From Escherichia coli (GTDB taxonomy: Bacteria; Pseudomonadota; Gammaproteobacteria; Enterobacterales; Enterobacteriaceae): a stretch of DNA of 64,000 nt. The notes below the pieces were generated by a model that saw only the letters and a program-made list of their open reading frames with translations, was not told the origin of the DNA and made no database searches. The translations under genes were made by a program, and so were the position numbers. The stretch lies in NCBI RefSeq assembly GCF_003790525.1, contig NZ_CP033635.1. One strand, 5' to 3'. Below, piece by piece: positions 3,848-12,230 of this stretch (positions are counted from its first letter, which is position 1; each line of letters starts with the position of its first letter).

Positions 3848-5841
3848 GATAACTTCCTGTTAATCACGCAATCCGGGTTAGCCGTCAGACTTCCGGTATT
3901 ACCGTTGATTTCAAAACCCTGAACCTGGCGCATTTGTGAGAAATGATTTGCCAACGACCAGGCATCGACGCCCATCGCATACATGCGAGCCAGCGAATAA
4001 TCGTTGTTCACCGCGCTGAGCGCCTGCTGCATTAACGGCAGATTACCGCCTGCCAGCATCGGGATTTCGCTGTACTGCAAGCCTTCCATCTCCAGGCGGA
4101 AATCCGGGCCAGCGGTCCCTTGCGCACTGCGGGAGCTGGCGTACAGCGTTGCACCGCTCTGGCTACCGTTACGCATGGCGATCATTGGTTTGATAAAAGC
4201 GATTTCACCCGGCGTTGCCACAATGTACACCGCATCGACACGACCGCCATTATTGGTGAACTGGTCATCGGTTGGCGTGGTTTGCAGCGTTGGATTGTTG
4301 GTCGTCATGCCGGAGTCGGTTGTTTCTCTGGGAGTAATCGGGCTACCCGTTAAAGCAATACCAGAACCGCCGTTAACACCCGCGCGTAATTCGCTGGTGG
4401 AACCAAATTTTTGTTGCAGAACGGTGCCGCCACCCAGTTTCTGCCACTCTTGCGCAAACGCATTGGCTACGCGATCGCCCAATGAACTGCGTGGGATCAG
4501 CACCAGCGGCGCTTGTTTACCCTGGTCACGAATATGACGCGCTGCATCGCGCGCTTCGTCTTCCGGTGAAAGCGCGAAGTAACAAATATTGACGCGGTTT
4601 TCGATATTCTCCGGCTGGTTCAGTGCCAGCACGTTCAGCGGGGTGTTGCTCTTCAGCAACTCTTCAACGTTATTTTTCAGCAACGGACCGACCACAATAC
4701 TCGCACCATCCTGCTGAACCTGGCTTAAGATCTGGCTAAGTGGTTGTGATGAGGTATCGTAGATTTTTAGCTCTGCGGATGGATTTGCGGGTGCGCTTAC
4801 CGCTGCGGTGCTTGTCGCCGGGGCGCTTACAGGCACCGGCTGGGCCGCAGGCTGCTCACCGGTCAGATCGCTAACCGAGGCTTGTGCCGGGCTGGCAACG
4901 CCATCCACGGTTTGCGGCTGAGGTTGTTCTGCTACGTCTGCGGCAGGTGCGGCAGCTACCTGGGCCGCCACTGGCTGAGTGCCGATATTTTTCGCCGCTT
5001 CAAAGCCTTGCTGAATAGTGCGACCAAATACCGCTGCCTGGCCATTCAGTGGCAACAGCAGGGCGATTTTGTTGGTCGATGCGGGTTTAAACGCTTTTAC
5101 GTTAACCAACTGCGTTGGCAGCATTTTCGCGCCCGGGTTGTTCGGATAACGTTTCTGCCAGTCGGCGATCCCGGCTTTCATCATGTCGGGATCGTTACGG
5201 TTATCAAACCAGATGCGCTGCAGATCCAACCAGCCTTGCAGAATATTTTCGTCGGCATTGATCACGAGCGTATTCGCCTGTTCCTGAGTCATGGAGGAGA
5301 GCGCCTGCCAGGTGGCGTCAATATTCTGCTGCTTTTCTTTCGCGCCGAGCAGCGGTTCCTGAGCAATTAACGCGCGCAGTAAATCAATGGAAGGACGCCC
5401 CTGGCTGGCATCGATTTTTGCCTGCCAGTAACGCGCTTGCTGGTTTTGTTCTAAATCGGCAGGTGTGATTTTCGCCAGCAAGTTTTGCGCGCCAGCAAAA
5501 TCTTTCTGCGCCAGTTTAATCTCTGCCGCCAGCAGTGTTTTCTCGCGACGCTGAGAATCGTTCAGTTCTTGCGGTAGTTGGTTAAACAACTCCACCGCCT
5601 GTCCGGTTTTACCTTCTTTCACCAGTGCATGAATGGCGAGTAATTGCCAGTTGATCCTGGTATCATCAGAACTTTGCTGCATCTGTTGCAGGTAAAAGGC
5701 AGAATCAGCCTGCGCCGTGCCCTGCATATAAGCAGTGGACTGATCGGGAGTATGGGTGCCACAACCGGCGAAAATCAGGGCTGCCAGAACAACAGGCAGA
5801 CAACGCGCGGCTTTCAAACGAGAAAATGTTGAGGGTACCAT
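3805..5841 (-). CDS. lpoA: Penicillin-binding protein 1A activator LpoA (outer-membrane lipoprotein, 678 aa)
   Basis: ORF 3805-5871 trimmed to the start [28 protein letters not shown] (lipobox); TPR-like N-terminus, Pro/Ala-rich linker. Confidence 0.92.
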
Positions 5842-9209: not shown

Positions 9210-9686
9210 TTAGTCAGGGATTTGTTCTTTTTGATCGCCAGGGACGTCCTGAATGAAAACATTCACGCCACGTTGTTTAATAAAACGTAAGTCCGCGAGA
9301 TCCTGGTCATCGACATAAACTTTACTGCTGATTTGCTTTTTCCCTTCCGAGAAATGCATATTGCCGACGTTGACATCTTTCAGGTCAATACCACCTTCTA
9401 CCAATTTACGTACCGTTTGTGGCGTACGGCAAATCAGGAAGATCTTCTGATGCGGTGCAGCTTTGCCGATGACGTTAATGGTTTTTTCGATAGTAAAGAA
9501 ACGAATGCCAAAGCCGTAGGTTTCTGCGGTAATACCCATTAATTTCTGTTGAATATCATCGTTAGCGACAACATCATCCACGACTACCAACAGATTCGCA
9601 CCGATGGTGGATGTCCAGGTCACGCCAACCTGACCGTGAACCAGACGGTTATCAATACGGGTTAAGAGAATATTTGGACTGCTCAT
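9210..9686 (-). CDS. agaB: PTS galactosamine-specific EIIB component AgaB (158 aa)
   Basis: MSSPNILLTRIDNRLVHGQVGVTWT... (mannose-family IIB phosphohistidine motif). Confidence 0.92.
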   Translation of the reverse strand: MSSPNILLTRIDNRLVHGQVGVTWTSTIGANLLVVVDDVVANDDIQQKLMGITAETYGFGIRFFTIEKTINVIGKAAPHQKIFLICRTPQTVRKLVEGGIDLKDVNVGNMHFSEGKKQISSKVYVDDQDLADLRFIKQRGVNVFIQDVPGDQKEQIPD

Positions 9687-9852
9687 TGTGTAATCCTCAC
9701 CATAAAGTTGAATAATATAATTTTTTTAAATATATTATTGTTGCGATATTGTACTGATGTATTTATTAAGGTTTAGTCATCTCCTTTTCCATTAAGGCAC
9801 TCCCCGATATTAATCGGGAAGTACATTGGGATAAATCATAAAAAACTAATGA

Positions 9853-10725
<873 letters not shown>

Positions 10726-11880: not shown

Positions 11881-11899
11881 AACTCAATCCTTAGTCTGA

Positions 11900-12060
11900 T
11901 GAACTTGACGTCGGGCGTTGTCGCTTTCGCTTACCTTTCGTTTCATTTCACTTGGTGATGTCTTTCGTTGATTAAAATCTATAGAAAAGAAACTGAAAGT
12001 TCAATGGAGAAAAAAGAAATAAAACGAAATTTGTGATCATTGAAAGAAAAGACAAGGGAA
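11900..12060 (-). promoter_or_regulatory. agaS promoter region with AgaR operator-like repeats
   Basis: Repeated CTTTCGTTTCATTTCAC / GAAACTGAAAG / AAAACGAAAT motifs upstream of agaS on the minus strand, resembling AgaR (DeoR-type) operators. Confidence 0.6.
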
Positions 12061-12099
12061 GATTAAAGGATTGCGTGATAACGTCGCTATGTTCACCGA

Positions 12100-12160
12100 T
12101 TGCCGGATGCGGCGTACCGTAGGTCGAAGAAGACGCGTCAGCGTCGCATCCGACACCGCT
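12100..12160. repeat. REP palindromic element immediately downstream of agaA
   Basis: gccggatgcggcgta...gacgcgtcagcgtcgcatccgac inverted REP pair. Confidence 0.7.
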
Positions 12161-12230
12161 GCACAGATCAAAAAGAAAGAAAAAGAAAGGCCTTACGGGG
12201 GAAGTGAAGGCCCAATAAAGGAGCAAACCA

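Follow-up and report, generated by a model that had tools for sequence, protein, structure and literature searches.

A conserved, covarying stem-loop without a U tract lies at the variable gene junction behind kbaY in the aga operon

The kbaY-agaB junction and its spacer

In the 64-kb stretch of Escherichia coli DNA analyzed here (the window), kbaY and agaB are adjacent genes on the minus strand, and the names that an earlier, sequence-only reading had given them were right (Table 1). That reading had also described the spacer between the two genes as unusually long and AT-rich, and the gene spacing of the operon bears this out: the spacer has 166 nt at 28% GC, compared with a 12-nt gap for agaS-kbaY, a 38-nt gap for agaB-agaC, an 11-nt overlap for agaC-agaD and a gap of 0 nt for agaD-agaI, all four taken from the identical RefSeq record. 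The other long gap of the cluster, 349 nt between agaA (nagA) and agaS (11881-12230, minus strand), carries the AgaR-controlled agaS promoter (PMC3668189). The strain of the window has a complete aga cluster with agaW, agaE, agaF and agaA intact, unlike K-12.

A 351-nt query across the kbaY-agaB junction was 100% identical to E. coli strain 2016C-3878 and was matched in 5311 of 5426 complete E. coli genomes. At a coverage of at least 80% of the query, the spacer was present in 5246 of the 5426, and the junction was single-copy, with a median of 1 place per genome. The K-12 MG1655 spacer (NC_000913.3 3284004-3284169) differed from that of the window at 2 positions, both substitutions, and the MG1655 record annotates neither an RNA nor a repeat there.

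Table 1 Features of the kbaY-agaB junction in the window and of related loci; positions are those of the window unless a locus is named.
Feature	Position	Strand	Basis or remark
kbaY CDS (tagatose-bisphosphate aldolase subunit), upstream cistron	9853-10713	-	Open reading frame list; 100% match to RefSeq-annotated kbaY
agaB CDS (galactosamine PTS IIB), opens the downstream agaBCDI module	9210-9686	-	
kbaY-agaB spacer	9687-9852	-	166 nt, 47 G+C (28% GC)
U6 run between kbaY stop and hairpin	9840-9845	-	Sequence and alignments; U-rich tract here in Citrobacter too
RNA stem-loop GUACUUCCCGAU-UAAU-AUCGGGGAGUGC	9797-9824	-	12 bp including two G.U; U tract absent 3'
Mini-ORF AUG GAA AAG GAG AUG ACU AAA CCU UAA (MEKEMTKP)	9766-9792	-	Eight codons; begins 4 nt past hairpin
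Shine-Dalgarno-like AAAGGAG	9781-9787	-	~10 nt past hairpin; alignments
AU-rich, G-poor, unstructured stretch	9703-9780	-	3 G in 78 nt, C/G 3.67; candidate RNase E or Rho entry
agaB Shine-Dalgarno region GGUGAGGA	9694-9701	-	Invariant in Escherichia and Citrobacter (alignments)
TATATT, -10-like hexamer of candidate antisense sigma-70 promoter	9731-9736	+	Promoter scan
TTGAAT, -35-like hexamer of candidate antisense promoter	9708-9713	+	Exactly 17 nt from -10
kbaY-proximal half, window haplotype	9771-9852	-	
kbaY-proximal half, other haplotype	L082 99-180		
Gene for ~630-aa protein after kbaY, examples	L052 3972-5867; L010 3967-5853; L055 4044-5939		L052 is Buttiauxella noackiae
Two unrelated hairpin types after kbaY	L014, L017, L018, L020, L024, L035, L049, L064 (~50-90 nt after kbaY); L006, L037-L046		

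A stable hairpin in the proximal half of the spacer

The sequence-only reading had placed a hairpin, cccgatattaatcggg, in the spacer. A hairpin is indeed there, and the quoted sequence shows only the upper part of the stem-loop, as seen on the plus strand; the real stem is longer, with 12 bp. The best 36-nt local fold in the spacer had an energy of -19.2 kcal/mol, compared with -7.0 ± 2.1 kcal/mol for dinucleotide shuffles, of which 0 of 400 were as stable. Over the entire spacer, the fold z-score was -2.57. When RNAalifold was applied to whole Escherichia and Citrobacter spacers, the helix recovered was that of this hairpin alone, with no further conserved structure in the spacer; a 9-bp helix made of AU pairs only, predicted in the E. 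coli spacer, was absent from Citrobacter and was discarded.

A covariance model (R1) built from an alignment of 25 homologous hairpins (A1) matched the E. coli hairpin from 9793 to 9828, and this was its sole match in the window. Membership in a curated Rfam family was ruled out, as the Rfam scan of the region returned three chance-level matches only (E 1.6-5.5), with bit scores far under gathering. Because the hairpin is single-copy, it is not a REP element: a REP/BIME repeat was ruled out by the median of one place per genome, the one covariance-model match in 64 kb and the lack of an annotated repeat in K-12. No description of a kbaY-agaB hairpin was found in the literature searched.

Homologous hairpins covary and favor the mRNA strand

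A scan for KbaY with one genome per species yielded 80 loci. Hairpins homologous to that of E. coli, with the common core GYUAYCYG...CRGRUARC, were present 9-37 nt 3' of the kbaY stop in 25 sequences from 7 genera, namely Escherichia, Citrobacter, Raoultella, Klebsiella (K. michiganensis), Buttiauxella, Yersinia and Ewingella. In alignment A1 of these 25 hairpins, standard pairs made up 88.9% of cells, both sides had changed in 11 of 13 pairs, and the covariation score was reached by 0 of 500 shuffles, statistics that may be inflated by the relatedness of the sequences. Sliding the 3' partner by 1-3 columns lowered the pairing to 34-42%.

The two strands can be told apart by two kinds of cell, as G.U pairs form on the mRNA strand only and A.C cells would pair on the opposite strand only. 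Over the 11 core pairs of the 25 hairpins, G.U outnumbered A.C by 36 to 10 (counts that are phylogenetically non-independent), and the sense fold was more stable than the antisense fold in 22 of the 25. Both results argue for selection on the mRNA strand and not on a DNA palindrome, and point to an RNA structure on the mRNA.

Beyond its training set, model R1 had one match, the hairpin GUACUGCCCG-GGAA-CGGGUAGUAC of Klebsiella sp. BIGb0407, which closes the unit just 3' of the stop of a 647-aa gene. Not every locus has the hairpin after kbaY. It was missing from ~16 loci in which a gene for a ~630-aa protein follows only 14-25 nt after kbaY, and 9 loci with agaB after kbaY had no member of this hairpin family.

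The gene after kbaY varies

Across the 80 loci, agaS and kbaY were a constant pair and the gene after kbaY varied. It was agaB in Escherichia, some Citrobacter, Trabulsiella, Kosakonia, Phytobacter, Pluralibacter and Lelliottia, a gene for a signal-peptide protein of ~630 aa in 33 of the 80 loci, and a PTS EIICB gene in further loci; a few loci (e.g., L030 and L048) had no co-oriented ORF within 600 nt past kbaY. Among the agaB-bearing loci alone, the spacer ranged from 38 to 335 nt. This variable gene content marks the junction as a seam where different modules were attached.

The hairpin-bearing loci are spread over two of these arrangements, with agaB next in Escherichia and Citrobacter and the gene for the ~630-aa secreted, GH36-like protein next in Raoultella, Klebsiella, Buttiauxella, Yersinia and Ewingella. 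Given the differing downstream gene and the placement in BIGb0407, the hairpin marks a 3' boundary and is not tied to the service of one particular downstream gene. Where kbaY was truly the last gene, other hairpins were found behind it, including a canonical U-tailed one in L048.

The ~630-aa protein had no sequence match in Pfam, NCBIfam or the PDB. Its AlphaFold model, of moderate confidence (pLDDT 61.7, pTM 0.60), was nearest to the Flavonifractor plautii GH36 alpha-galactosaminidase (8x1b, 9awt), with E ~1e-16 and TM ~0.5, and next nearest to GH36 alpha-galactosidases and alpha-N-acetylgalactosaminidases. A GH36-like fold would fit a module for GalN/GalNAc supply, and on the strength of the model the protein probably represents an uncharacterized family of periplasmic, GalN/GalNAc-releasing glycosidases tied to the aga pathway.

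At loci with a PTS EIICB gene after kbaY, two other, unrelated types of U-less hairpin were seen at the junction, GAAGGCGCG...CGCGCCUUC and AAGGUCAUGA...UCAUGACCUU. They occurred in Enterobacter, Kluyvera, Salmonella enterica subsp. arizonae/diarizonae and one Escherichia sp. A predicted stem-loop after kbaY is therefore a feature that recurs in non-homologous forms.

The two halves of the spacer differ in conservation

Within Escherichia, the proximal 81 nt of the spacer, from the kbaY stop through the hairpin to AAAGGAG, were highly variable, and the distal 85 nt were about as conserved as the coding flanks. Four distal blocks were common to Escherichia and Citrobacter: CTKAATAAAT, AATAATRTAT, ATTCAA and the agaB Shine-Dalgarno region. 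The proximal ~81-82 nt exist in E. coli as two haplotypes, which differ at 14 of 81 nt and by 1 nt in each flank. The haplotype of the window was found in 4707 complete genomes and the other, which is E. whittamii-like, in 567. The hairpin is kept in both, including a flip from U.G to G.U. Their sequences suggest an old polymorphism or an import by recombination.

In Citrobacter amalonaticus S646 (L032 ~4060-4200), the ATTCAA block is separated from the agaB ribosome-binding site by an insertion of ~150 nt, which bears terminal inverted repeats, GCCTGCCCACCAGGC ... GCCTGATGGGCCAGAC, and lengthens the spacer to 335 nt. From its sequence, the insertion looks like a miniature inverted-repeat element.

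Candidate signals for termination, cleavage and initiation

The tail after the E. coli stem is CUUAAUGG, and the terminator scan made no call there. A U-rich tail followed the hairpin in 0 of 26 homologous copies. As no copy has a U tract, the hairpin is not a classical intrinsic terminator; for the Rho-independent class, the stable stem is present and the U run (about 5 of 8) is missing in all 26 copies.

The AU-rich stretch behind the hairpin (Table 1) contains only 14% C in E. coli, and RNAalifold predicted no conserved structure within it. The density of RNWUU motifs was 4.8 per 100 nt over the whole spacer vs 1.9 in kbaY, a 2.6-fold difference. C exceeded G on the 3' side of the hairpin in only 14 of 26 homologous loci, and a Rho-loading signature kept across genera was rejected on this count. 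In E. coli, the steady-state 3' ends of transcripts without intrinsic terminators lie just past stable, U-less stem-loops; these guard the ends against RNase II and PNPase, and the sites where Rho loads are immediately 3' of them (PMC6061677). No kbaY or agaB entry was found among the 3' ends and start sites searched in published supplements; K-12 grown in standard culture represses the operon.

A promoter scan of 1.8 kb gave one match of at least 9/12, TTGAAT-17-TATATT, which scores 9/12 and is on the plus strand, antisense to the operon, with a predicted start near 9743(+). The TATATT hexamer falls within the conserved sense-strand block AATAATATAT (9730-9739), at the same position in E. coli and 6 Citrobacter loci, and TTGAAT corresponds to the conserved sense-strand block ATTCAA. 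Both hexamers, at the exact 17-nt spacing, were present in E. coli, E. whittamii and the 6 Citrobacter loci; the hexamers were ~90-100% conserved and the 17 nt between them diverged. No antisense start site or RNA near 9743(+) was found in the literature searched, including the text of the Cappable-seq supplement searched. The AgaR motif consists of CTTTC-type repeats. On inspection by eye, the spacer showed no such repeats, and an AgaR operator there was set aside.

A proposed exonuclease barrier between two modules

Published expression data bear on the junction indirectly. RNA-seq of E. coli EDL933 in rectal contents gave log2 fold-changes of 4.57 for agaY (kbaY), 3.01 for agaB and 2.11 for agaC, and in small-intestine and rumen contents agaY was induced and agaB not called (PMC6199705). 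These figures are fold-changes and not absolute levels, and because induction still falls into agaC, they do not locate the step at the hairpin. In E. coli C, a deletion of agaS was polar on agaBCD and not on kbaY, and growth on galactosamine was restored only by agaSYBCD in trans, for which the authors blamed polarity (PMC3668189). This polarity implies that agaBCD depend on upstream transcription. According to the same study, agaS and kbaY are used in the catabolism of both GalNAc and GalN, and agaBCD in the uptake of GalN only (PMC3668189). Silencing of the AT-rich spacer by H-NS was considered and set aside; the paper on the SlyA regulon reports agaS-kbaY-agaBCDI as SlyA-induced 2.5-fold and leaves its further annotation columns blank for the operon (PMC5797941). 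The published polarity and RNA-seq are in line with attenuation and count against a strong internal promoter.

For the role of the spacer, the sequence-only reading had offered transcript processing or partial termination on the one hand and an internal promoter on the other. The first option is partly supported, by a covarying sense-strand hairpin without a U tract, by the drop in induction and by the agaS polarity, and this support, indirect as it is, is better than that for the internal promoter, which is weakly disfavored.

We propose that two modules of one operon, distinct in evolution and in function, meet at the spacer, with the catabolic core agaS-kbaY upstream and agaBCDI as an accessory galactosamine-supply unit downstream. 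The stem-loop, ~28 nt past the kbaY stop, would block 3'-to-5' exonucleases on the mRNA, and any transcript cut or terminated within the next 110 nt would be trimmed back to it. These ends could arise by RNase E cleavage or by Rho-dependent termination, either of which the 110-nt stretch would suit because it is untranslated, AU-rich and G-poor. The outcome would be a stable agaS-kbaY message, with agaBCDI expressed from the agaS promoter only by the fraction of intact read-through. The net effect would be natural polarity, with the enzymes expressed above the membrane transporter. We assign a probability of about 0.5 to such a 3'-exonuclease barrier at the module boundary, followed by an AU-rich stretch of cutting or termination; within it, we infer the function as a barrier, the way in which the 3' end forms and the quantitative effect on expression.

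The candidate antisense sigma-70 promoter could limit agaBCDI by a different route. Firing from near 9743(+) towards the hairpin and the kbaY 3' end, it would cut read-through by transcriptional interference or by antisense RNA-directed cleavage of the junction. It is the sole match of at least 9/12 in 1.8 kb, its hexamers and their 17-nt spacing are kept across genera around diverged sequence, and the ~150-nt insertion of C. amalonaticus S646 lies just outside the two blocks and leaves both intact. We nevertheless regard it as a tentative possibility, for AT-rich DNA abounds in matches of 8-9/12 on either strand, and promoter-like sites were fewer in the scan (1) than in shuffles (2.9). The constant spacing is not special, since the distal half as a whole is near indel-free, and both E. 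albertii and E. coli E69 have a weakened -35 hexamer. It may instead be the agaB 5' leader, or a weak sense promoter, that the blocks serve, and the literature searched gave no antisense start site or RNA. An antisense promoter is compatible with the exonuclease barrier, and the two are not exclusive. They could even be combined, although this is a doubtful construction: a protective hairpin on the sense strand would fix the agaS-kbaY 3' end, an antisense promoter would fire into the hairpin, and collision or antisense-guided cleavage would determine the share of transcription that gets through to the galactosamine transporter genes, with the same hairpin reused in other genera at the boundary of the GH36-like, galactosaminidase-type module. 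The conserved distal half could also hold an internal sense promoter in its AT-rich part near agaB, which would make agaBCDI partly independent of the agaS promoter and the hairpin the mere end of the upstream unit. Such a promoter would account for the better conservation of the distal 85 nt within Escherichia and for the blocks common to Citrobacter; the conserved AATAAT/TAATAT could be a -10, and in Citrobacter TTNATN, 16 nt upstream, gives a score of 8-9/12; the lower fold-induction of agaB than of kbaY could then mean a constitutive baseline. It is unlikely all the same, as the minus strand has no match of at least 9/12 with hexamers 16-18 nt apart (the best is 8/12, and TACATC at the E. 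coli -35 position scores 2/6), inspection of the spacer reveals no CTTTC repeats of the AgaR type, and complementation of the agaS deletion suggests that agaBCD depend on upstream transcription (PMC3668189).

Two further explanations concern the hairpin itself. With a stem of -19 kcal/mol right after a stop codon and expression falling across the kbaY-agaB junction, a weak intrinsic terminator that halts part of the transcripts at the hairpin might be considered, but the tail CUUAAUGG, the absence of a U-rich tail from all 26 copies, the silent terminator scan and the use of canonical U-tailed terminators where kbaY ends the unit, as in L048, make it very improbable. The junction could alternatively be a non-functional scar from the joining of agaBCDI behind agaS-kbaY, with the hairpin there by descent or as a protein-bound palindrome. 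The kbaY junction is, after all, a hotspot of gene-content change, with a spacer of 38-335 nt among agaB-bearing loci, a hairpin missing from many lineages and a highly variable proximal half that differs at 14 of 81 nt between the two E. coli haplotypes. A scar would, however, hardly keep 11 of 13 pairs through two-sided changes when the flanking non-coding sequence is unalignable across genera, the G.U excess and the better sense folds are unexpected for neutral DNA or a protein-bound palindrome, and the stem is kept in both haplotypes, including the U.G to G.U flip. We consider a scar quite unlikely.

If the exonuclease barrier holds, one promoter would give much enzyme for GalNAc and GalN and less of the membrane transporter that serves GalN only, and the puzzling published finding that the agaS deletion is polar on agaBCD and spares kbaY would be accounted for. 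The hairpin would be a natural example of a structured RNA at the seam of accessory modules joined to a conserved catabolic core, and the covarying alignment is a ready candidate for a small cis-regulatory RNA family. The general view of operons would be unchanged, as intercistronic stabilizing hairpins and natural polarity are already well known. The hairpin is probably a case of ordinary operon fine-tuning, which shields the end of the upstream enzyme message and makes the transporter genes less tightly coupled to it.

Comparison with known systems

The closest functional analogs of the hairpin would be the malE-malF stabilizer and the stem-loops that protect Rho-dependent transcripts. With the latter (PMC6061677) it shares a stable, U-less stem-loop after a coding sequence, followed by an unstructured, G-poor stretch where Rho could load, and the proposed protection against PNPase and RNase II. 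It differs from that class in that it is internal to an operon and a further co-transcribed gene follows it, and in its low downstream C, with an excess of C over G that is not conserved across genera.

In work by Newbury et al. from 1987, the intercistronic REP stem-loops of malE-malF reportedly stabilize the upstream message, an effect said to be experimentally proven. The likeness lies in an intercistronic hairpin between the gene for a highly expressed soluble protein and membrane transporter genes, and in the proposed rise of the upstream:downstream expression ratio through a block to 3' exonucleases. The malE-malF REP belongs to a genome-wide repeat family, whereas the kbaY-agaB hairpin is single-copy and unique in 64 kb, and its effect is deduced.

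The group of H. M. Lim is said to have explained the natural polarity of the gal operon by 3' ends formed at cistron junctions. Like gal, aga is a sugar operon, and the lower downstream cistrons and the transcripts with ends at cistron junctions, cut back to hairpins, would have their counterparts in what is proposed for aga. We know of no small-RNA input to aga such as that of Spot 42 to gal. Intrinsic terminators or attenuators also lie between cistrons, e.g., in rpsU-dnaG and rplL-rpoB. They resemble the arrangement proposed for aga in that a hairpin inside an operon lowers distal expression, but the U tract that defines them is missing in all copies of the kbaY-agaB hairpin.

Small elements past the hairpin

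The mini-ORF that begins behind the hairpin (Table 1) has a GGGGAG in the hairpin 3' arm, 7 nt upstream of its AUG. MEKEMTKP was judged not to be a gene, as it is present in most Escherichia only, varies non-synonymously, is frameshifted in E. albertii and is absent in Citrobacter. At the place of AAAGGAG, a purine-rich, GGA-containing motif is found in Escherichia and Citrobacter, and in Raoultella and Buttiauxella the AAGGA Shine-Dalgarno sequence of the glycosidase-like gene lies at a similar distance past the hairpin. AAAGGAG may be what is left of the translation start of a gene formerly located behind the hairpin.
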